From positions 4,344 to 68,343 of the forward strand of contig JBBUFS010000003.1 in NCBI GenBank assembly GCA_038056395.1: 64,000 bases of DNA. The letters run 5' to 3'. Every line of letters starts with the position of its first letter. The stretch's first letter is position 1. Of the stretch, positions 3,514 to 56,720 are shown in pieces. The notes beneath the pieces were generated by a model that worked only from the letters and a program-made list of their open reading frames with translations, had not been told where the DNA came from and searched no databases. Both the position numbers and the translations under genes were made by a program. This stretch comes from Patescibacteria group bacterium. GTDB lineage: Bacteria; Patescibacteriota; Minisyncoccia; Phycocordibacterales; WO2-35-19.

Positions 3514-4161
3514 GGTTTGAGAAAGTTTCTTACAAAAACTTTTGCGATGGATTTCGGAAAGACCGTGTTTGAGGAGGAGGGAGTAATGGAGCTTTGTACC
3601 ATACCCTTTGTGAATTGGAAACATATAGAGAGGGAATTTCCCGCCCAGGCGGCACATTAGGCGGTCGCGGCGGACTTTGGCGACAATGGAGGCACAGGCA
3701 ATAAAAATATCTTTACTATCGCCTCCAATTATGGTTTTTTGATTTTTAAATTCTTTTGGCGCTTTGAGCAGACCATCCAACTTAATATTAAAAGTATCAA
3801 AGGTGCCCTTTGAGTTTTGTAAAGTGTGTTGTAATTTTTTTAAACATCTTTTTATTCCCAATCCTGTCGCATAAGAAATTCCTTTTTTGTCTATTATCTT
3901 ATTTGAAATGTGGGAGACTTTAAAATTTATTTTTCTTGTCCCGCGAAGCTTTAGCGAAGTGGGATTTTTCCTTAATTTCAAAAATTCTTTATAAATTTCT
4001 TTTCTTCTTTTTGGAGAAAACTGCTTTGAATCTTTTATTTTGCCACCCAGTATTTTTATAAGCTTGCTTCTCAAATTTTGAGGGGCTAGAAATGCCGACA
4101 AAGTTATAGGTCCCGCCAAGGGCCCTCTCCCCGCTTCGTCAATCCCAATTATGTAGATCAT
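3511..4161 (-). CDS. rnhB: Ribonuclease HII
   Basis: 216 aa, MIYIIGIDEAGRGPLAGPI... typical RNase HII N-terminus. Contains two repeat-derived segments (listed separately). Confidence 0.9.
   Translation of the reverse strand: MIYIIGIDEAGRGPLAGPITLSAFLAPQNLRSKLIKILGGKIKDSKQFSPKRRKEIYKEFLKLRKNPTSLKLRGTRKINFKVSHISNKIIDKKGISYATGLGIKRCLKKLQHTLQNSKGTFDTFNIKLDGLLKAPKEFKNQKTIIGGDSKDIFIACASIVAKVRRDRLMCRLGGKFPLYMFPIHKGYGTKLHYSLLLKHGLSEIHRKSFCKKLSQT
3797..3840. repeat. 44-nt segment inside rnhB duplicated at 56597-56640
   Basis: TCAAAGGTGCCCTTTGAGTTTTG is identical at both loci (23 nt); 38 of 44 nt match overall. Confidence 0.8.
3938..3965. repeat. Family B GC-rich repeat inserted in frame in rnhB (encodes PTSLKLRGT)
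   Basis: CCGCGAAGCTTTAGCGAAGTGGGA versus CCGCGAAGCTTCTGCGAAGTGGGA in rplU (59211-59234). Confidence 0.75.
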
Positions 4162-4258: not shown

Positions 4259-7200
4259 ATGAAATTTACTCATCTCCATACCCACTCCCACTATTCCCTG
4301 CTTCAAGCTTTACCTAAGATTCCAGAGCTTATAGAAGCGGCTAAAAAGGAGGAGATGGAAGCTTTGGCGCTGACAGATAACGGCAATATGTACGGCGCTA
4401 TTGAATTTTATAAGGAGTGCAAAAAAGCCGGCATTAAGCCGATTATTGGCGTGGACGCTTATCTGGCCGGCCGCACCCGATTTGACAAACAGGCCGGTAT
4501 TGATAAAGATAGATTCAGATTGATTTTGCTTTGCAAAAATGAAACAGGTTATAAAAATCTTTTGAAATTAGTGTCAGCATCTTATTTGGAAGGATTTTAT
4601 TATAAACCGCGTATTGATTTTGAAATTTTAAAGAAGTATTCGGAAGGACTCATCTGCATTTCTTCGTCCTGGAGCGGGGACATTTCCACCGCTTTAAGAA
4701 ATAAAAATGTGGAACTGGCCAGAGAGTTGGTGCAGAAATATAAAAAAATTTTTGATGGAAATGATGATGGCGATTTTTACATTGAAATCACTAAACATCC
4801 GGAGCTGTCTGGACATAACGAACATATGGATATCTTGGCAGAGTTTGCCAAAGAAAATTCAATTGGAATCGTGGCTGCTCACGATGTTTATTATATCGCG
4901 CCGGAAGACAAAGAAGCTAAAAATACTTTAATGGCGGTAAGTCAAGGTGCTCCGCAGAGTAATGGCGAAAGGGGTGCTTGGGATAATGAAGATGAGGATT
5001 TCTCTTTTCTCTCGGAAGCTGAAATTGGGGAAAGGTTTAAGAATATGCCAGAAGCAATTTTCAACAACCATAAAATTACCGCTCTTTGCAATTTGGAATT
5101 GGAATTAGGTAGATGGTCTTTCCCCGACTTGAAGGTGGAGTCTGGAAAGAGTTATAACGAAGAATTGCGCGATCTAGCTTACAGCGGATTGGAAAAACGC
5201 GGCCTGCCGCGGAGCAAAGAGGTGATAGAAAGACTGGAATACGAGCTCAATATCATAGTAACAAAAGGGTATTGCCCGTATTTTTTGGTGGTGGCTGACT
5301 TAATGAATTACGCTCATGAGCACGGCATATTAACAAACATAAGAGGATCGGTCTCTGGATCGCTGGCAACCTACGCTTCCAATATTACAAATATAAACCC
5401 GTTGGAATACGAAATACCTTTTGAAAGATTTTTGAATCCGGACCGGCCCTCCGCGCCGGACATAGATATAGATTTTGCGGATAACAGGCGCGATGAAATA
5501 GTGGAATACGTCAAGAAAAAATATGGCGAGGATAAAGTAGCCCAAATAGGCACTTTTGGCACTATGATGGCTCGCGGCAGTGTAAGGGACACGGCTCGGG
5601 CTCTTGGTTTTGCCTACACCATTGGAGACAAAATAGCCAAACTTATCCCCATGGGCCAGCAAGGTTTTCCTATGACCATTGATCGCGCTCTAGCTGAAGT
5701 GCCGGAACTGGCAGAGCTTTATAAAAAAGACGCCGATTCAAAAAAAATAATAGATATGGCCAAAAAAATTGAAGGCTGCGCCAGACATATCGGAGTGCAT
5801 GCGGCTGGCGTAGTTATCAGCCCAACCGATTTAACCGACTTTACTCCTCTTCAATATGATCCAAAAGGCGAAGGCAAAATAATTACTCAATATGATATGT
5901 ACAGTGTAGATGAAAACGGCGCCGGGCTTTTGAAATTTGATTTTTTGGGGCTAAAAAATCTTTCCATTATTGCGGCCACTATTGCTTTAGCTAAAAAAAC
6001 AAAAGAGACAGAAATAGATTTGGACAAAATGCCGATTGACGATAAGAAAACATTTGAAATGTTAGCTCGGGGGGAAACAGAGGATCTTTTTCAGCTCAAT
6101 GGCGACGGTATGACCCGATTTTTGGTAGAACTCAAGCCTACTTCTATACACGATATAAACGCTATGGTAGCCTTGTACCGTCCGGGACCGATGCAATTTA
6201 TTCCAAATTATATAGAACGCAAGCATGATCCTTCCAAAATCACCTATCTTGATCCGGCCCTGGAGCCAATACTCAAAAAAACTTATGGCATTTTGGTTTA
6301 TCAGGATGATTTGTTGATGATGGCCCATAATTTAGCCGGCTATACTTGGGGCGAGGTTGATAAATTTCGCAAAGCGGTCGGCAAAAAAATTCCCAAAGAA
6401 ATGCAGGAACAAAGAGAGAAGTTCATAAAAGGTTGTATGGAATATTCAAAGTGGAATGAAAAGAAAGCCAAAGAAATTTGGAGCTGGATAGAACCCTTTG
6501 CCGCTTATGGTTTTAACAAAGCCCACTCTGTTTCCTATGGGAGAGTGGCTTATCAAACCGCCTATCTCAAAGCAAATTTTCCCGGAGAATATATGACTTC
6601 GGTGCTTTCGACTGAATCAGGAGATACCGAAAAAGTGGCTCAGTCCGTAGCCGAATGCAAAAGAATGAACATTGAAATTTTGCCACCGGATATAAATGAA
6701 AGTTATTCTGACTTTACTTTAATCAAAAAGGAAGTAAAAGATAGTAAAGAAACCATAAGATTTGGATTAACGACAATAAAGAATTTTGGCGAAGGAATTT
6801 CACACACAATAACTGCTGAAAGAAAAGAAAGAGGCAAATTCAAATCAATGGAAGATTTTTTAATCAGAATTCAGGACAGAAATTTAAACAAAAAATCTTT
6901 GGAAGCTTTGGTCAAGTCCGGCGCTTTTGATAATTTTGGAGAAAGGGGTAAAATGCTCGCTAACACGGAAACATTTTTGGAATACAGCAAAGAATCAGCT
7001 GGCAATAAAGACCAGGAATCTCTCTTTTCCTCTGTTGCTGTTTCAGGAGACTATTCTCCTATTCATTTAACGCCTGCAAATCCGGCTACTCCGGCTGAAA
7101 AACTAGCTTGGGAAAAAGAACTTTTGGGTTTGTATGTTTCAGGGCATCCATTGGAGCAATTCAAGGAAAAACTCTTGGCTCAAAAAAACACGATTAAAAA

Positions 7201-25368: not shown

Positions 25369-25384
25369 CTCACTCCACTTTTTC

Positions 25385-25883
25385 GACCCCACCCCGAATG
25401 CCTTACGGCATTCTGCCCCTCACCTTGCGAAGGTGAGGGGAAAAATTAAAACCAAAATAACTTTTAATTTTATCCAAAACTTTTTCAATATCATTTTCAA
25501 CCTCATTATTTTGAAATCTTAAAACTTTATAATCAAGTTCTCTAAAATATTTATCTCTAATCTCATCATATTCTTTGGCTTCTTTTGTGTTATGTATTTC
25601 TCCGTCTAATTCAACTATTAATTTCTTTTGTGGGCAATAAAAATCCAAAATGTAACCTCCTATACTGTGCTGTCTTTTGAATTTATAACCCAGTTTTTCG
25701 TGTCTCAATTCAAACCATAATATTTCTTCTGTTTTTGTTTGATTTTTTCTTAATTCTTTTCTTCTTTCTTTAAGAACCTCATTGTTGTGAATAAGTTTAG
25801 ACATTTTGATTTTTGTTCCCTTCTTATCCCCTCACCTTCGCAAGGTGAGGGGTAGTTCCGCTTTAGCGGAACGGGGTGGGGTC
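25385..25883 (-). mobile_element. Composite palindromic element carrying a DUF559 nuclease gene (cloverleaf repeat split around an ORF)
   Basis: Outer arms GACCCCACCCC (25385-25395) and GGGGTGGGGTC (25873-25883). Hairpins at 25396-25413, 25416-25440, 25828-25852 and 25855-25872. Same module order as the solo element at 42375-42463. Confidence 0.65.
25403..25804 (-). CDS. DUF559 (Vsr/restriction-endonuclease-like) domain protein
   Basis: 133 aa; EEILWFELR...LGYKFKRQHSIGGYILDFYCPQKKLIVELDGEIH typical DUF559. The last about 13 aa (SPHLRKVRGRMP) are encoded by the flanking repeat. Confidence 0.8.
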   Translation of the reverse strand: MSKLIHNNEVLKERRKELRKNQTKTEEILWFELRHEKLGYKFKRQHSIGGYILDFYCPQKKLIVELDGEIHNTKEAKEYDEIRDKYFRELDYKVLRFQNNEVENDIEKVLDKIKSYFGFNFSPHLRKVRGRMP

Positions 25884-34016: not shown

Positions 34017-34036
34017 GCGATTAAATGTAAACGATG

Positions 34037-34315
34037 TTATCGTCTAAAATTATCTCTGCGAGGACGGGCCTCTTGAGGGCGAGCCTCATTTACGGTCAGG
34101 GCCCTTCCTTCAATATCCTTGCCATTCCATGCATCGATGGCGGCATTGGCTTCGGCATCATTTGTCATAGTTACAAAACCAAAACCCTTGGAGACACCTC
34201 TTTCCCTGTCCATAATAACGACAGCCTCGGTGACCTCGCCGTTTTTGGAGAACATGTCTCTCAAATCGGCATCGGTGGTTTTGTAAGGCAAATTGCCTAC
34301 GAAAAGCTTTTTCAT
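34037..34315 (-). CDS. RRM-type RNA-binding protein
   Basis: MKKLFVGNLPYKTT (RNP-2), KGFGFVTM (RNP-1), RG-rich tail. Start set at ATG 34315. Confidence 0.88.
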   Translation of the reverse strand: MKKLFVGNLPYKTTDADLRDMFSKNGEVTEAVVIMDRERGVSKGFGFVTMTNDAEANAAIDAWNGKDIEGRALTVNEARPQEARPRRDNFRR

Positions 34316-34636
34316 TGCGTACTTTGTTACATTGCGATTAAAACGACCAATGGTTCGATTGCTCTCACCATAAAGCGGTTCCGCCTGCTGTTCGCGATAC
34401 AAAGCCCGCAAAACAAACAAAGAGAACTTAACACTTACTTTAATAATATATACCTATGCCTCCCAAAAGTCAACCCCATTGCACATTTAAATACAGATGC
34501 TATCATGTACGAGTTATTAAAAAAGTTCCGAAGCATAACCTTCCGCAATACCGAAATAGCCCAACCTTCACTAAAGTTACGGCGGGCAAGGCAAGAGAAT
34601 GCGGAAAAGCGACGGTTTTTGTTTTGCAAAATTATT

Positions 34637-35731
34637 ATGGTTAAAAAAATTGTTGAAAAAAAAGAAGAAAAGCAAGAAAGCAGAATGTCCAAATTTTTGG
34701 ACGGCTCGGCGCTACCGCCAGCCAAAGATTCAATTGTGGAAGGCGCGGTCATAGCTATTGCCAAGAATTCTATTTTCGTGGATTTGCCACCTTGGGGCAC
34801 CGGGGTTATTTTTGGCAAAGAATACATCAACGCACGCGATTTAATAAAGAAGATAAACATTGGAGATAGAATTACCGGCAAAATAGTCGGCAATGACAAT
34901 AAGGAAGGATATATAGAAATATCTCTGAAAGAAGCTAAGCAAGCTCTTATTTGGAGCGACGCCGAGGAAGCGATTAGAGACAAGAAAGTATTTGAAATAC
35001 CAGTTAAGGAAGCAAATAAGGGGGGCTTGATGCTAGTTTGGCAAGGCATTACCGGCTTTTTGCCGGCCTCCCAATTAAAGATGGAGCATTATCCGCGAAT
35101 TTCTGATGGAGACAAAGACAGAATATTGGAAGAATTGCGAAAATTAGTAGGTCAAAAACTTTCGGTGGCTATTATTGCCACCAACGCTAAAGAAGGTAAA
35201 CTTATTTTTTCCGAGAAAGACCCCGATAGCGGCGAGAAAGAAAAAATAATTGATAAATACAGCTTAGGAGATGAATTAGAAGGAGAGGTGACCGGCATCG
35301 TTGACTTCGGAATTTTTGTTAAAATAGAAGAGGGTTTGGAAGGTCTGGTTCATATTTCAGAAATAGATTGGGGCCTCGTTGACGATCCGCACAGGTTTGC
35401 CAAAGTGGGAGATAAAATAAAAGTAAAAATAATTGAAATAAAAGACAGCAAAATTTCCCTTTCCATTAAAGCTTTAAAGGAAAATCCGTGGACCGAAGCG
35501 TCTAAAAAATACAAAAAAGATGATGTGGTCAGCGGAGTAGTTATTAAATTCAACAAACACGGCGCTTTAGCTTCCATTGAAGAGGGGGTGGCCGGCCTGA
35601 TTCATATTTCCGAATTCGGCACCGAAGAAAAACTGCGCGAAAAACTAGAGCTTGGCAAGACCTATAATTTTAAAATAAATATTTTTGATCCCAAAGAGCA
35701 AAAAATGGCATTGTCATTTGTTGAGAAATAA
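34637..35731 (+). CDS. rpsA: Ribosomal protein S1-like protein (four S1 domains)
   Basis: Start set at MVKKIVEKK (34637). Repeated GxV...GxFVxL S1 motifs. The upstream part of the ORF-track frame is antisense to the RRM gene. Confidence 0.8.
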   Translation: MVKKIVEKKEEKQESRMSKFLDGSALPPAKDSIVEGAVIAIAKNSIFVDLPPWGTGVIFGKEYINARDLIKKINIGDRITGKIVGNDNKEGYIEISLKEAKQALIWSDAEEAIRDKKVFEIPVKEANKGGLMLVWQGITGFLPASQLKMEHYPRISDGDKDRILEELRKLVGQKLSVAIIATNAKEGKLIFSEKDPDSGEKEKIIDKYSLGDELEGEVTGIVDFGIFVKIEEGLEGLVHISEIDWGLVDDPHRFAKVGDKIKVKIIEIKDSKISLSIKALKENPWTEASKKYKKDDVVSGVVIKFNKHGALASIEEGVAGLIHISEFGTEEKLREKLELGKTYNFKINIFDPKEQKMALSFVEK

Positions 35732-35746
35732 TTATATGGGTCTTTT

Positions 35747-35792
35747 TAATTGAATGCATTCATCGCCTTGTCTCGTCCGTCAGTAATGGGTT
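35747..35792. repeat. Diverged duplicate of the pth 3' end
   Basis: TTAATTgaatgcATTCATCGCctTGTCTCGTCCGTCaGTaATG versus 36952-36996 TTAATTaaacatATTCATCGCtcTGTCTCGTCCGTCgGTgATG (about 38 of 46 nt identical). Confidence 0.75.
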
Positions 35793-35816
35793 CCCCTGAT
35801 GGGCACCATCAAGGGG
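35793..35816. repeat. REP-like hairpin flanking the RAYT gene (left)
   Basis: CCCCTGATGGgcaCCATCAAGGGG; contains the RAYT stop codon. Confidence 0.75.
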
Positions 35817-36489
35817 ATTCAAACTCGGCATATTCAAGTTCGAGTTCAGAATGTTTTTTCTGCTGAATATTTTCAAAAGAATCTTCTACCATCTTCTTAT
35901 AACTACTGGGATCTTTAAGTTGATCTAAAATAATTTTGTTTTTACAAATTTTTTCAGAATTAATACTTAAATATTCTACATAACTACTCCACCGCCAACT
36001 AATGTCTTTTTTTATCAAGTTAGCAATTCTTGGATTTAAATGAATATAAGCAGAGAGCCACAATAAATATTCATTACTATCTATAAGTACAGATTTAAAT
36101 TGGTCCTGAAATAAAGAACCGACTCGATTGTATTTTAGATTGAAGTATTTTGAATAACTACTACACACTTTTAAAATAAGTCTGCTTACAGAAACATCGC
36201 TATTTTGTTTGATTAAAATATGAAAATGATTTGGCATCAAACAGTAGGTAATAAGCGAAAAAGATCCAGGTGGAAGCATTTTTCTGATGTATGGTGTGTG
36301 ACTTTTTCCTCGATAGACCTTATTTTTTAATTTGGAAACTTTCTTATTTGGAAATAAATTTTCTTTTAATCGATTAAAGAAAACATTAAAATCTTGTTCA
36401 TCTTTAAATATAGCCATCTTATCAACTCCACGATTATAGATATGGTAATAACAACCTGGTGCAAAATTCTTATAATCTCTGGTACCCAT
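35809..36489 (-). CDS. REP-associated tyrosine transposase (RAYT, IS200/Y1 HUH family)
   Basis: YHIYNRG..., HUH motif MPNHFHILIKQ, C-terminal RWSSYVEY Tyr motif. ATG 36489 is preferred (TATAAT 7 nt upstream); alternative ATG at 36498. Confidence 0.85.
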   Translation of the reverse strand: MGTRDYKNFAPGCYYHIYNRGVDKMAIFKDEQDFNVFFNRLKENLFPNKKVSKLKNKVYRGKSHTPYIRKMLPPGSFSLITYCLMPNHFHILIKQNSDVSVSRLILKVCSSYSKYFNLKYNRVGSLFQDQFKSVLIDSNEYLLWLSAYIHLNPRIANLIKKDISWRWSSYVEYLSINSEKICKNKIILDQLKDPSSYKKMVEDSFENIQQKKHSELELEYAEFESP

Positions 36490-36505
36490 GAAAAACATTA
36501 TAACT

Positions 36506-36530
36506 CCCCTTGATGGTGCCCATCAAGGGG
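36506..36530. repeat. REP-like hairpin flanking the RAYT gene (right, inverted copy)
   Basis: CCCCTTGATGGtgcCCATCAAGGGG; reverse complement of the left copy except for one extra A. Confidence 0.75.
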
Positions 36531-36585
36531 ATCTGTGGAAAACAAAAAGTGCCAAGGACGCGCCTTGACACTTGATTGCCCAAAG

Positions 36586-36900
36586 TCAGACATTGGGCAA
36601 TGTTTGCTCTTCCATAATTGCTTTGTATTGAGCATTAAGAGATCTCATAAATATTTTCAAAAATCTTTTGTCAGACAAACTCTCGAGTGAGAGCATGACT
36701 TTTCTAAGATCTCCGAGATAATCATCTATCTCGGGATGCTCTGATGAATCATTGGAAGCCAAAAGGGTCTGCCTCACAAATTCTTCGACCACCTTTTGAA
36801 TACTCGTTACTTTTTTGACAGAATGGAGTTTCAATTTCGTGTGTAAATCTCGATCAAGAAAAATGCTTACTTTTACCTTTTCCACCCTCGTTTTCTCCAT
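36586..36900 (-). CDS. Ribbon-helix-helix (CopG/Arc-like) domain protein
   Basis: KVKVSIFLDRDLHTKLKLHSVKKVTSIQKVVEEFVRQTL. ATG 36900 with GAGGAGA 7 nt upstream. Confidence 0.5.
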   Translation of the reverse strand: MEKTRVEKVKVSIFLDRDLHTKLKLHSVKKVTSIQKVVEEFVRQTLLASNDSSEHPEIDDYLGDLRKVMLSLESLSDKRFLKIFMRSLNAQYKAIMEEQTLPNV

Positions 36901-36951
36901 GTACAAATCTCCTCTATTTGCAGACTACTCTTTTTAAATAAATAATCAACT

Positions 36952-37554
36952 TTAATTAAACATATTCATCGCTCTGTCTCGTCCGTCGGTGATGAGAGTC
37001 TGGATGGCTTCGCTTACTTTTTTAAAGATTTTTTTTATAATTTCCAGTTCAGCCGGTTTGAATTTATTCAATATAAAATCAATGACCGCTTTCTCGCCTT
37101 GAGGTTTTTTAATTTTTCCGCTCGGAGTTGCGGATGAAATGCCAATTCTTATTCTGACAAATTCTTTTGTCTTGACTGCTTTAACGACTGAGTCCAATCC
37201 CCTATGCCCACCCGTACCTTTATTGTAAGAAATTTTTAATGTTCCCAAAGGCAAATCAATATCGTCATGCACCACAATCAAATTTTCCAGACCTTTTTTA
37301 GAAGTTTTTAATTTTGGCTTAACAAAATAAGAAACGGCTTGCCCTGATTTATTCATAAATGTCTCCGGCAAAATTAAAGTGGCTGGTTCTTTTCCTATTT
37401 TTGATTTTGAAATTTGAGATTTGGATTTTTTATCAAATTCCCATTCCGGAAAATTTAAATCTTTATATAATTTCATAACCGCCTCCCTTCCGGTATTGTG
37501 GCGAGTATTTAAATATTCCTCTCCTGGATTGCCCAAACCTATGATGTAAAACAT
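36952..37554 (-). CDS. pth: Peptidyl-tRNA hydrolase
   Basis: MFYIIGLGNPGEEYLNTRHNTG..., 200 aa. Confidence 0.92.
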   Translation of the reverse strand: MFYIIGLGNPGEEYLNTRHNTGREAVMKLYKDLNFPEWEFDKKSKSQISKSKIGKEPATLILPETFMNKSGQAVSYFVKPKLKTSKKGLENLIVVHDDIDLPLGTLKISYNKGTGGHRGLDSVVKAVKTKEFVRIRIGISSATPSGKIKKPQGEKAVIDFILNKFKPAELEIIKKIFKKVSEAIQTLITDGRDRAMNMFN

Positions 37555-42312: not shown

Positions 42313-42357
42313 CCAGGGGGTGACCCTTGAAATGCCCCTGCCCCAAAGGGTCACCAC
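42313..42357. repeat. Family E hairpin repeat
   Basis: GGTGACCCTT (42319-42328) pairs with AAGGGTCACC (42346-42355). Second copy at 56641-56685. Confidence 0.7.
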
Positions 42358-42374
42358 CAACTTTTTTGTTTTTC

Positions 42375-42463
42375 CTACCTCACCCCGTTCCGCTAAAGCG
42401 GAACTGCCCCTCCCCTTTGCAAGGGGAGGGGCAATCCGACGCAAGTCGGATGGGGTGAGGTAG
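42375..42463. repeat. Solo cloverleaf (four-way-junction) GC-rich repeat
   Basis: 12-bp outer stem CTACCTCACCCC/GGGGTGAGGTAG encloses three hairpins: GTTCCGCtaaaGCGGAAC, CCCCTCCCCTTtgcAAGGGGAGGGG and ATCCGACgcaaGTCGGAT. Confidence 0.8.
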
Positions 42464-55157: not shown

Positions 55158-56534
55158 ATGCCAGAAATAAAATCGCATATAAGAATTCCGCCGCATAATT
55201 TGGAGGCCGAGAAAGCGCTACTTGGTTCGGTGATGCTGAGGCCGGAAGTGATGTTTGAAATTACGGACTTGGCGCACGCGGTTTCTTTTTATTCAGAAAA
55301 GCATCGTCTTATTTTTGAGACAATGTTGGATCTTTTTTCAAAAAGAAGTCCGACAGATTTATTATCTGTTTCTGCAAGATTGAAGGAAAAAAATTTGCTA
55401 GACGAAATAGGCGGCAACAGTTATTTGGGCGAGCTGGTCAATTCGGTGCCCTCGGCAGCCAATGCAAATTATTACGCCCAGATAATTCAAAAAAAACATA
55501 TCGCCAGAAATTTGATTGGCGCCGGGGATTTTGTGTCTTCTTTGGGGTATGACGAAGCCGAAGAATTGGAAAATCTCTTGGATCAAGCCCAAAAGAAAAT
55601 TTATGATGTGACAAACATTTCAAGCATACATAAATTTGTAGAACTTAAAGAAGAATTAACGGAGGCATGGGAAAGACTTGATCGATTGCATAATTCAGGA
55701 GACGGCTTACGAGGTGTGCCAACCGGTTTTAAAGAGCTTGACGAAAAACTTTCCGGTTTGCAAAAATCTGATTTGATAATTTTAGCGGCGCGACCTTCCG
55801 TTGGTAAAACTGCTCTGGCTCTTGATATTGCTCGCCAGACAGCCGTTTATCACAATACTCCGGTTGGCATTTTTTCATTGGAAATGAGTTCCCAGCAATT
55901 AGTTGATAGAATGCTTGCTTCCCAATCAAATGTTGACGCCTGGAAATTGCGTACAGGAAAATTGATCAGAGAAGACGATTTTTCAGCTATTCGCCAATCC
56001 TTGGATGTCCTTTCCAAAGCGCCCATTTTTATAGACGATCAGCCGGGCAACAATATTTTGAAAATGCGCTCAGTGGCCAGACGGCTCAAAAATGAAAAAG
56101 GGTTGGGACTGATTATTGTAGATTATCTGCAGTTGATGGCCACTAATAAAAATTATGATTCTATGGTCAATCAAGTAACCGAAATTTCCCGCTCTTTAAA
56201 AAATTTGGCACGCGAACTTGAAGTGCCTGTCATGGCCCTTTCCCAGCTTTCCCGCGCCATTGAACAGAGAGGTGGCAAGCCAAAGCTCTCCGACCTGCGC
56301 GACTCCGGTTCCATTGAACAGGATGCCGATGTTGTTATGTTTATACACCGCGAAGATAAACAAAAAAATACAAACGAAGCCGAAAAAACAAACATAGCCG
56401 AAATTTTGATTGAAAAGCATCGCAACGGCGCCACCGGCCGTGTTGAACTTTTCTTTAACGAAAAAAAGGCCTCATTCCTGCCCCTTGAAAAAGCCCAATT
56501 CACCGGCGCCGAAAGCGAGTTTAGAGAGTTTTAA
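55158..56534 (+). CDS. dnaB: Replicative DNA helicase DnaB
   Basis: PPHNLEAEKALLGSV, Walker A ARPSVGKT, SQLSRAIEQR. Confidence 0.95.
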   Translation: MPEIKSHIRIPPHNLEAEKALLGSVMLRPEVMFEITDLAHAVSFYSEKHRLIFETMLDLFSKRSPTDLLSVSARLKEKNLLDEIGGNSYLGELVNSVPSAANANYYAQIIQKKHIARNLIGAGDFVSSLGYDEAEELENLLDQAQKKIYDVTNISSIHKFVELKEELTEAWERLDRLHNSGDGLRGVPTGFKELDEKLSGLQKSDLIILAARPSVGKTALALDIARQTAVYHNTPVGIFSLEMSSQQLVDRMLASQSNVDAWKLRTGKLIREDDFSAIRQSLDVLSKAPIFIDDQPGNNILKMRSVARRLKNEKGLGLIIVDYLQLMATNKNYDSMVNQVTEISRSLKNLARELEVPVMALSQLSRAIEQRGGKPKLSDLRDSGSIEQDADVVMFIHREDKQKNTNEAEKTNIAEILIEKHRNGATGRVELFFNEKKASFLPLEKAQFTGAESEFREF

Positions 56535-56535
56535 C

Positions 56536-56593
56536 GACCCCACCCCGTTCTGCTAAAGCAGAACTGCCCCTCACCTTGCGAAGATGAGGGTGG
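56536..56593. repeat. 5' half of a cloverleaf-family element (outer arm plus two hairpins, no closing arm)
   Basis: GACCCCACCCC GTTCTGCtaaaGCAGAAC tg CCCCTCACCTTgcgAAGATGAGGG. Confidence 0.7.
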
Positions 56594-56596
56594 AAG

Positions 56597-56640
56597 TCAA
56601 AGGTGCCCTTTGAGTTTTGAGACGTATGGTGTAATTTTTT
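56597..56640. repeat. Copy of the 44-nt rnhB-internal segment
   Basis: TCAAAGGTGCCCTTTGAGTTTTG...GTAATTTTTT; see 3797-3840. Confidence 0.8.
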
Positions 56641-56685
56641 CCAGAGGATGACCCTTGAAGAATTTTGTCCCAAAGGGTCACTCTC
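56641..56685. repeat. Family E hairpin repeat (copy 2)
   Basis: CCAGAGGATGACCCTTGAAgaattttgtcccAAAGGGTCA; compare 42313-42357. Confidence 0.7.
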
Positions 56686-56720
56686 AAAATTTTTGTGTGA
56701 TTTTATGCTATATTTTAAAT

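Follow-up and report, generated by a model that had tools for sequence, protein, structure and literature searches.

A displaced pth 3′ end beside a RAYT-type cassette at the pth/rpsA junction of a Patescibacteria genome looks like a recombination scar

The gene for peptidyl-tRNA hydrolase (pth) in a 64-kb stretch of Patescibacteria DNA (contig JBBUFS010000003.1; hereafter the window, to which all positions without another label refer) is accompanied by a second copy of its own 3′ end. The two copies enclose a ribbon-helix-helix (RHH)-like gene and a RAYT-like transposase gene, the latter placed between two inverted copies of a hairpin. A preliminary description of this region, made from the sequence alone, regarded the enclosed DNA as a module inserted in the manner of an integrative island. 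We lean towards another explanation: an allelic pth 3′ end was probably acquired, together with its downstream cargo, by recombination in the hypervariable spacer between pth and rpsA, and the old end was left as a relic. The arrangement is a recombination scar of an unusual sort, at a place known as an insertion hot spot, and does not represent a new kind of integrating element. It looks like a one-off event beside a RAYT-type cassette and not like something that an integrative element would do; the evidence gives no support to an integrative island driven by the RAYT.

Two copies of the pth 3′ end

The intact pth gene (36952–37554, minus strand; 200 amino acids) is recognised by Pfam at 176 bits and by TIGR00447 at 156 bits. 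Its functional 3′ end, copy B (36951–36994, minus strand), reads ITDGRDRAMNMFN followed by a stop codon. The displaced copy, copy A (35745–35788, minus strand), reads ITDGRDKAMNAFN followed by a stop codon at 35746–35787, and lies 14 nt from the rpsA stop; both peptides are those given in the preliminary description. The best local alignment of the copies is ungapped, with 36 identities in 44 nt (82%) and a longest identical run of 13 nt. When the 45-nt pth end was slid over both strands of the 64 kb, the next best match was 25/45 (mean 11.7, standard deviation 2.9), and the match between the copies stands about 8 standard deviations above this window background. The repeat noticed earlier is thus real and, as tested within the window, significant, although its coordinates were off by 1–4 nt and its count of 38/46 did not hold. 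It is the sole gene-end repeat of such kind in the window. Along the minus strand, the order is as follows: pth, the copy B end, the RHH-like open reading frame (ORF), a terminator-like hairpin, the hairpin at 36505–36530, the Y1 HUH gene, the hairpin at 35793–35817, and copy A. About 1.16 kb separates the functional pth end from the displaced copy, and the copy B stop codon is 1.2 kb from that of rpsA.

Exact-protein look-ups trace the window to groundwater metagenomes of the Hainich aquifer. Three independently assembled contigs from there (L001, L002 and L003; L-numbers denote the loci and contigs compared) match the window with 100% identity. Each of them covers the junction between the RAYT gene and the relic, and L002 and L003 run well into rpsA. 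The match of L001 ends at 35696, and the side comprising pth, the RHH-like gene and the RAYT gene is covered by L001 alone. The final 126 nt of L001 (5038–5163) are GC-rich and bear no relation to the window, which there runs into rpsA; they are probably a chimeric contig end.

The copies differ at 8 positions, all transitions, in 5 codons. Three of these codons are synonymous, with changes at the third position (ATT/ATC, ACT/ACC and TTC/TTT), and two change the residue (AAG/AGA, K/R; GCA/ATG, A/M). One codon (GCA vs ATG) differs at all three positions. If 8 substitutions are placed at random on 42 nt, the probability of two residue changes or fewer is 0.0016, or 0.01–0.016 if only transitions are allowed. 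The two replaced positions are those that vary among 120 functional pth homologues, with K or R at the first and, at the second, M, I, L, V, Q, R or E (A, S, T and G are rare there). The peptide of copy B is the same as the pth end of L015, and the same as that of P0136 except for the additional final Q of the latter. Because the differences, all of them transitions, change just two residues, copies A and B would be alleles, both coding under selection on the pth peptide for most of their divergence, and not a decayed local duplicate.

The competing possibility at this point is an in-situ duplication, in which the last 44 nt of pth were copied locally (by staggered breaks, template switching or slippage) and the rpsA-side copy then drifted as non-coding sequence. 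We regard this as rather unlikely. It would account for the lack of indels between the copies and for their 13-nt identical core, with synonymous GGA CGA codons that the nearest relatives do not use, but not readily for the two residue changes among 8 substitutions (P about 0.002–0.016 under random drift), nor for their coinciding exactly with the two positions at which functional pth ends vary. Copy B is, moreover, nearer to the pth end of L015 (38/42) than to copy A (34/42), and target duplications are not known from HUH transposases.

The pth/rpsA junction in related genomes

The pth loci were scanned with one genome per species, and 80 loci were returned. The closest belong to Candidatus Zambryskibacteria, within Paceibacteria of the candidate phyla radiation (CPR). 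The order hisS-lepB-pth, facing a convergent rpsA, is kept in more than 40 Paceibacteria loci, and the stop codons of pth and rpsA are 1 nt (L015), 3 nt (L007) or 44 nt (L111) apart. Because the two stops nearly adjoin in relatives, copy A is seen to occupy the native position of a pth end, and we read it as the displaced original end of this lineage. It follows from this position that the DNA separating the pth body from copy A is, in its entirety, an addition to the ancestral junction. The earlier claim of a 1.16-kb insertion at the pth end is borne out to this extent, that the DNA lies between the functional end and a displaced copy at the native position; it is not one module, however, as only the RAYT cassette recurs. 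The comparison of the rpsA-pth junction in relatives, which the preliminary description had proposed, showed the native pth end beside rpsA (at 1–3 or 44 nt) and the insert in none.

A second copy of the pth end was not found in the closer relatives L107, L111 and L112, and none was seen in L007–L018, for which the 100 nt upstream of the rpsA stop were read. The window insert was found at pth in no other genome: neither the RHH gene nor the composite occurs in about 55 Paceibacteria pth loci or in any of the 114 fetched loci (about 768 kb in total) that were used for the RHH comparison. The closest relatives by pth (78–82% identity) carry no RAYT at the pth/rpsA locus, and the 90% cluster of pth contains the window sequence alone.

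This junction is a hot spot for cargo, in Zambryskibacteria as well as in Paceibacteria at large. The spacer between pth and rpsA ranges from 1 nt to 2.7 kb in relatives, and nearly every relative has different cargo there: an FAD oxidase, a glycosyltransferase, a SWIB-like protein, DUF559, a nucleotidyltransferase, HIT with NUDIX, a sigma factor, an HD protein, a small membrane protein, or GC-rich repeats. The small membrane protein (97–100 amino acids; …LGI.TIY.GLN.DL.C…WKKPQIGN…) is found between pth and rpsA in several Zambryskibacteria (L107 4126–4425, L112 4112–4405, L008 6372–6674 and L014 4578–4880) and is absent from the window, L007, L015 and L111.

RAYT-like cassettes also occur here. 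L018 has one of another subfamily between pth and rpsA, and in L006, which has the closest homologue of the window RAYT (73%), the cassette is 1.3 kb downstream of pth. In L064, a distant member of Paceibacteria, the 3′ coding end of pth contains the left hairpin of a RAYT-like cassette (24% identity), and the pth gene there is without the canonical …EG.EK.MN.FN terminus. The hairpin copies of L064 are at 4487–4520, about 4698–4725 and 5239–5267; of the three, one is in frame inside the RAYT ORF.

A transposase gene between inverted hairpins

The RAYT-like Y1 HUH gene (35809–36498, minus strand) is an ORF of 229 amino acids from its first ATG; since homologues begin at MGTRDYK, the likely start is at 36489 (226 amino acids). 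The protein matches Pfam Y1_Tnp (PF01797) at 38.6 bits (cut-off 23) and has the HUH motif HFH, the catalytic tyrosine in YIHLNP, and a C-terminal extension of about 70–80 amino acids; H91, H93 and Y151 are invariant in an alignment of 36 members, the window protein included. Its best NCBIfam model is REP_Tyr_transpos (NF047646), at 45.3 bits and under the cut-off of 80. When a profile was searched against the PDB, E. coli TnpA-REP (4ER8) came first with a weak E value of 0.057, and ISDra2 TnpA had E = 0.7. The single-sequence search of the PDB had given TLR matches only, which were judged spurious, and the profile was needed. Homologues number more than 7,800, mostly from Patescibacteria and mostly annotated as 'transposase' or 'RayT'. 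The GC content of the gene is 26–29%, as against 35–42% in its flanks; that of the window is 39.8%.

The preliminary description placed inverted hairpins on either side of this gene, and this is what we found. The RAYT-distal hairpin (35793–35817) reads CCCCTTGATGG TGC CCATCA-GGGG on the gene strand, with one stem base missing, and the RAYT-proximal or upstream hairpin (36505–36530) has a perfect 12-bp stem with the loop GCA on the gene strand. The two are 96% complementary as an inverted pair, and their loops, GCA and TGC, give the inverted orientation. Folded as single-stranded DNA, the upstream hairpin has −13.2 kcal/mol (z = −6.5) and the distal one −9.4 kcal/mol (z = −3.1). When the window was searched for the 25-nt hairpin sequence with up to 3 mismatches allowed, these two were the only matches, where 0 are expected by chance. 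The earlier label of repetitive extragenic palindromic (REP) hairpins holds in part: identical solo copies (exact over 23 nt) occur in other CPR-like contigs, but the hairpin is not dispersed in the 64-kb window. Some of these contigs come from the same aquifer, and they are not assignable to the window genome.

The RAYT stop codon TGA is inside the stem of the distal hairpin, and this hairpin ends 5 nt from the relic; the sequence at the join, 5 nt 3′ of the distal stem, is GGGGAACCC up to the join and ATT after it. The stop-in-hairpin layout is shared by L006, L095, L087, L089 and L093. At the other end, a promoter-like site that may serve the RAYT gene (36497–36526, minus strand) consists of a −35 box TTGATG in the upstream stem, an 18-nt spacer and a perfect −10 box TATAAT. 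A TATAAT/TAAAAT box is also present 2–4 nt past the upstream hairpin, 17–18 nt after the stem TTGATG, in L006, L089, L095 and L103. A YCCACA motif (36534–36541, minus strand) stands just 5′ of the upstream hairpin, and 5 of 7 cassettes have a similar motif (TCCACA, TTCACA, TCCACC or CCCACA) 2–6 nt before this hairpin; the motif is the probable left edge of the cassette.

The orphan gene between pth and the cassette

The RHH-like gene (36586–36900, minus strand) encodes 104 amino acids from ATG 36900, or 106 from TTG 36906, and is directly followed by a hairpin with a T-run resembling an intrinsic terminator (36547–36573, minus strand). The protein has an N-terminal strand-helix-helix and then two long helices. 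That it is an RHH protein, as had been proposed, agrees with the profile of a six-member family, which matches the RHH structures ParG, 56B, E73 and CopG (E = 4e-4 to 1e-2), and one member of the family passes Pfam Antitox_RHH. The protein itself remains sub-threshold for Pfam ParG (18.2 bits; cut-off 21.4). Its AlphaFold2 model has a pLDDT of 54 from the single sequence, which is uninformative, and of 71 with the six-sequence alignment; the top Foldseek matches of the model are RHH-type proteins, all weak (E ≥ 0.3). Taken with the prediction, the profile matches make an RHH fold likely for the 104-aa ORF.

A word search of 5.8 billion proteins gave no relative of this gene, and exhaustive HMMER searching gave six weak ones, with one context found, a 901-nt contig. 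The gene is also absent from all of the fetched loci. Because its relatives are few and weak and none is in the fetched loci, it is not a partner of the RAYT gene. Its GC content resembles that of the flanks, unlike that of the RAYT gene.

Extent and distribution of the cassette

The similarity of the window to the cassettes of L095 and L103 is limited to 35791–36530, that is, from hairpin to hairpin (about 740 bp), and this RAYT cassette is, as far as the alignments indicate, the only recurrent mobile unit. The closest RAYT homologues (61–74% identity) are in differing genomic contexts. The cassette adjoins RNase J in L087–L089, and the same cassette is found in L090–L092, short contigs with unannotated or different flanking genes. 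That of L103 adjoins a tRNA downstream of LemA/NUDIX, and a tRNA-like sequence also follows the cassette of L093.

In the closest homologues, one hairpin is about 10–30 nt upstream of the start, and the second copy overlaps the stop (…EFE(S/T)P and stop, with TGA in the stem). This architecture is present in at least seven homologous cassettes, and the stems co-vary between genomes (CCCCTTGATGG/CCATCAAGGGG, GTCCTTGAAGG/CCTTCAAGGAC, CCCCTGAAGAC/GTCTTCAGGGG). In the window and L103, the upstream hairpin has the 3-nt loop GCA and the pair is inverted; in L006 and L095, the loop is TGC and the pair is direct; the upstream hairpin would have flipped between genomes with its stem unchanged.

Some of the solo hairpins in other contigs (CCCTTGATGG-NNN-CCATCAAGGG) are in frame within ORFs: L099 333–355, L100 1828–1850, L096 6673–6695, and L097 773–795, the last with the same sequence as L101 2660–2682. 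The ORFs are Dus, TsaE, a 451-aa ORF and a 122-aa ORF; the 451-aa one, to judge by its N-terminal motif, looks like GluRS. The in-frame hairpins add peptides of the PLDG(A/H)HQG type, and an alignment with the solved Dus structures 1VHN and 6EI9 has a 10-residue gap exactly at the hairpin insert.

A paralogue of the RAYT gene, 56% identical, is located between topA and relA/spoT in L004, a locus from a 37.8-kb Hainich contig. It is flanked by its own 47-nt direct repeats (L004 4949–4995 and 5659–5704) with a small ACAATGGC/GTCATTGT hairpin, and this repeat has no copies in the 64-kb window. The paralogue also occurs on a contig of 139,281 nt, the length of the one that bears the window RAYT, and is apparently on the same contig. 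L004 also encodes a DprA homologue (Pfam DNA_processg_A), which we count, as uptake machinery, in favour of an acquisition by recombination.

These distributions bear on the idea of a RAYT-driven integrative module, in which the pth end, the RHH gene, the hairpin, the RAYT gene and the second hairpin would move as one, by one-ended or pseudo-end HUH transposition, into a matching pth site with a replacement terminus. Several features agree with it: direct repeats of the 3′ end of the target gene flank the insert, its right junction is 5 nt from the foot of the distal hairpin, a plausible distance for HUH cleavage, and L018, L064 and L006 also have RAYT-like cassettes at, within or close to the 3′ end of pth. 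The insertion site of IS200/IS605 elements, moreover, adjoins the short sequence that also borders the left end of the element. We nevertheless find such a module unlikely, since the unit conserved elsewhere stops at the hairpins, without the RHH gene or the pth end. The preliminary description had suggested looking for duplicated gene ends beside other RAYT copies; among the other RAYT-like cassettes, 0 of 13 has one. The RHH gene was found nowhere else, either in the loci or by the word search, a second copy of the 1.2-kb unit is in no collection searched, and the protein cluster of the RAYT contains a single context. With neither gene-end duplication at other cassettes nor recurrence of the insert at pth, the behaviour of an integrative island had to be given up; the accompanying remark that no integrase is present was correct, as none lies within several kb.

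A broader form of the idea is that the RAYT cassettes of Paceibacteria are autonomous HUH elements that prefer the pth 3′ end and mobilise upstream DNA and the gene terminus via a pseudo-end inside pth, so that insertion restores pth. We hold this to be very unlikely. If true, it would be a recombinase-free analogue of the 3′-end replacement mediated by integrases.

Origin of the arrangement

Under the reading that we prefer, the acquisition of an allelic end by recombination, DNA of a related bacterium would have replaced the pth end, bringing an intact allelic 3′ end and, behind it, the orphan RHH gene and the RAYT cassette as cargo. On the left, the crossover would have relied on homology, either within pth or upstream of it. 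The join on the right would be 5 nt past the RAYT-distal hairpin and 13 codons before the resident stop, so that those codons stay behind. Two options may be considered for this join: it may have been illegitimate, via homology-facilitated illegitimate recombination, or it may have used a copy of the hairpin that the resident pth already carried in frame. Restoring the missing base of the distal stem gives, on reading the sequence, PLDGAHQGEP in frame with the relic. A hairpin-mediated right join is plausible because of this reading frame and because in-frame solo hairpins exist elsewhere. By analogy with E. coli TnpA-REP and the TnpA of IS200/IS605, the RAYT enzyme should bind to the hairpins when the DNA is single-stranded, and should cleave and reseal it at the hairpin foot (PMC3479197, PMC6006769). 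A two-step route is equally possible: the pth end would first have received the cassette, in the manner of L064, before recombination between alleles repaired pth and brought the RHH gene. The essential pth would have stayed functional since the allelic end arrived with the foreign cargo, the old end being left behind. Scars of this kind at gene ends may help to date and orient horizontal acquisitions in CPR genomes, where classical mobile elements are few.

The following points weigh against this reading. The donor was not found: no genome with pth followed by the window RHH gene is in the databases searched. A mosaic test along pth against 12 relatives gave no clear breakpoint, these relatives being about 75–83% identical and too distant to resolve one. 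No empty-site variant of the window population is in the databases, as judged from exact-protein look-ups, and the RAYT-bearing contigs are all 100% identical. Copies A and B have the synonymous run GAC GGA CGA GAC in common, where the nearest relatives use other codons; this run fits a very close donor and a duplication within the lineage equally, and the shared 13-nt core with GGA CGA implies that any donor was close or that part of the history took place within the lineage. The substitution statistics rest on just 42 nt. The in-frame PLDGAHQGEP has a chance expectation of 1 in 3 and requires a postulated 1-nt deletion. Finally, the in-frame hairpin peptide LDG[AH]HQG occurs in 0 of the 120 pth homologues, which leaves a pre-existing hairpin in the resident pth without direct precedent in pth.

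A chance similarity, or a metagenome mis-assembly of two strain variants, might be thought of in view of the metagenome-assembled origin of the window and the unrelated GC-rich end of L001, but both are excluded by the background scan and by the separate contigs that are identical across the RAYT/relic junction, and the 13-nt identical run is too short to mislead an assembler.

Relation to known elements

The REPtron, a RAYT (TnpA-REP) gene flanked by its cognate REP hairpins, is known from E. coli (YafM; 4ER8) and, as the RAYT/REPIN system, from Pseudomonas (PMC6006769, PMC5581495, PMC3116915). The window cassette resembles it in five respects. One is that its Y1 HUH protein has the catalytic tyrosine in a YI(H/Y)xNP context; another is that the best matches of this protein among solved structures and NCBIfam models are TnpA-REP; a third is that the gene lies between two copies of one GC-rich cognate hairpin, here inverted; a fourth is that a paralogue has its own distinct flanking repeat; and the last is that solo hairpin copies exist elsewhere. 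The differences are as follows: the RAYT is below the NCBIfam cut-off (45 vs 80), the foot of the hairpin has no GTAG or CGTC tetranucleotide, copies of the hairpin are not dispersed within the 64 kb, the stop codon is in the 3′ hairpin and the −35 box in the 5′ hairpin, and the protein has the C-terminal extension. REPtrons were reported not to move as a unit (PMC6006769), whereas the whole cassette of the window type changes its context between genomes. RAYTs have been pictured as domesticated and vertically inherited (PMC5581495). For the present gene, the preliminary description had set domestication aside, and we agree: instead of a single copy with vertical inheritance and stable synteny, we found homologues in differing contexts, close relatives by pth without a RAYT at the locus, and a GC content about 10 points under that of the flanks. 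In the literature searched, no account of RAYT/REP systems in Patescibacteria was found.

The likeness to IS200, the minimal member of IS200/IS605, is in the size and plan of the unit: about 0.7 kb, with a single Y1 gene enclosed by two subterminal hairpins. Apart from these hairpins there are no terminal inverted repeats, and the sites differ across genomes. The cassette differs in that its hairpins are near-identical copies and not distinct left-end and right-end structures, and in that the available sequence has one copy per subfamily; the window holds one, and the paralogue is just 56% identical. Its protein is also nearer to TnpA-REP than to ISDra2 TnpA (E = 0.057 vs 0.7), and the insertion of IS200/IS605 neither duplicates nor replaces gene ends.

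Replacement of the 3′ end of a target gene is familiar from integrase-borne elements such as e14 and phage 21 in icd, and from islands that target tRNA genes. As in icd, the window insert is flanked by direct repeats of the gene 3′ end, the distal copy is diverged, mostly at synonymous positions, and the gene is intact. Unlike those elements, the insert is just 1.16 kb, is composite, and is not at the same target elsewhere; a tyrosine or serine recombinase was not found, the ORFs of the insert being the RHH-like and Y1 HUH ones, and 31–41 kb of the window is without a recombinase.

The Rickettsia palindromic elements (RPEs), of 100–150 nt, insert in frame into protein-coding genes. The solo hairpins of other contigs are likewise short palindromes in frame in housekeeping genes (Dus, TsaE and the presumed GluRS), to which they add PLDG(A/H)HQG. 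They are shorter than RPEs (about 24–36 nt), are tied to an identifiable cognate HUH gene, and were seen in other contigs, not in the window. RPEs are mentioned in PMC1779305.

Three matters concern the RAYT-like family rather than the window finding itself. One is that the RAYT-like genes of Patescibacteria differ from textbook domesticated RAYTs, in that the entire hairpin-gene-hairpin cassette relocates between genomes. Another is that the hairpin can occupy in-frame sites inside essential genes. The last is that the pth/rpsA junction is a recurrent landing zone. These points could merit a study of their own, for which complete genomes would be needed to quantify them.

Neighbouring gene and other repeats in the window

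The rpsA-like gene, with four S1 domains, occupies 34640–35731 on the plus strand (start approximate), convergent with pth and in conserved synteny with it. The 565-aa 'rpsA' ORF (34034–35731) is overextended at its 5′ end, the real start being near 34640–34700. An ORF like an RRM-type RNA-binding protein lies antisense in this 5′ extension (34037–34420), as judged from its own sequence and from an RRM_1 gene adjoining rpsA in L107 and L112.

A separate family of GC-rich repeats, each about 63 nt long and containing a double hairpin (ACCCCACCCCG…CCCCTCACCTTGCGAAGGTGAGGG), occurs at 25377–25439, 42368–42430 and 56528–56590, and has no associated enzyme in the window. Inspection by eye showed sequences similar to it in L012, L013 and L016, where they occupy the rpsA end of the spacer between pth and rpsA, and a shorter related GC-rich stretch in L111. 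Short repeats were also found at 3797–3840 and 56597–56640 (89% identical) and at 42339–42369 and 56666–56696 (81%), with the small hairpins TCAAAGGTGCCCTTTGA and CCCAAAGGGTCAC. They cluster beside copies of the GC-rich family and form a mosaic resembling a bacterial interspersed mosaic element around 56.5–56.7 kb.

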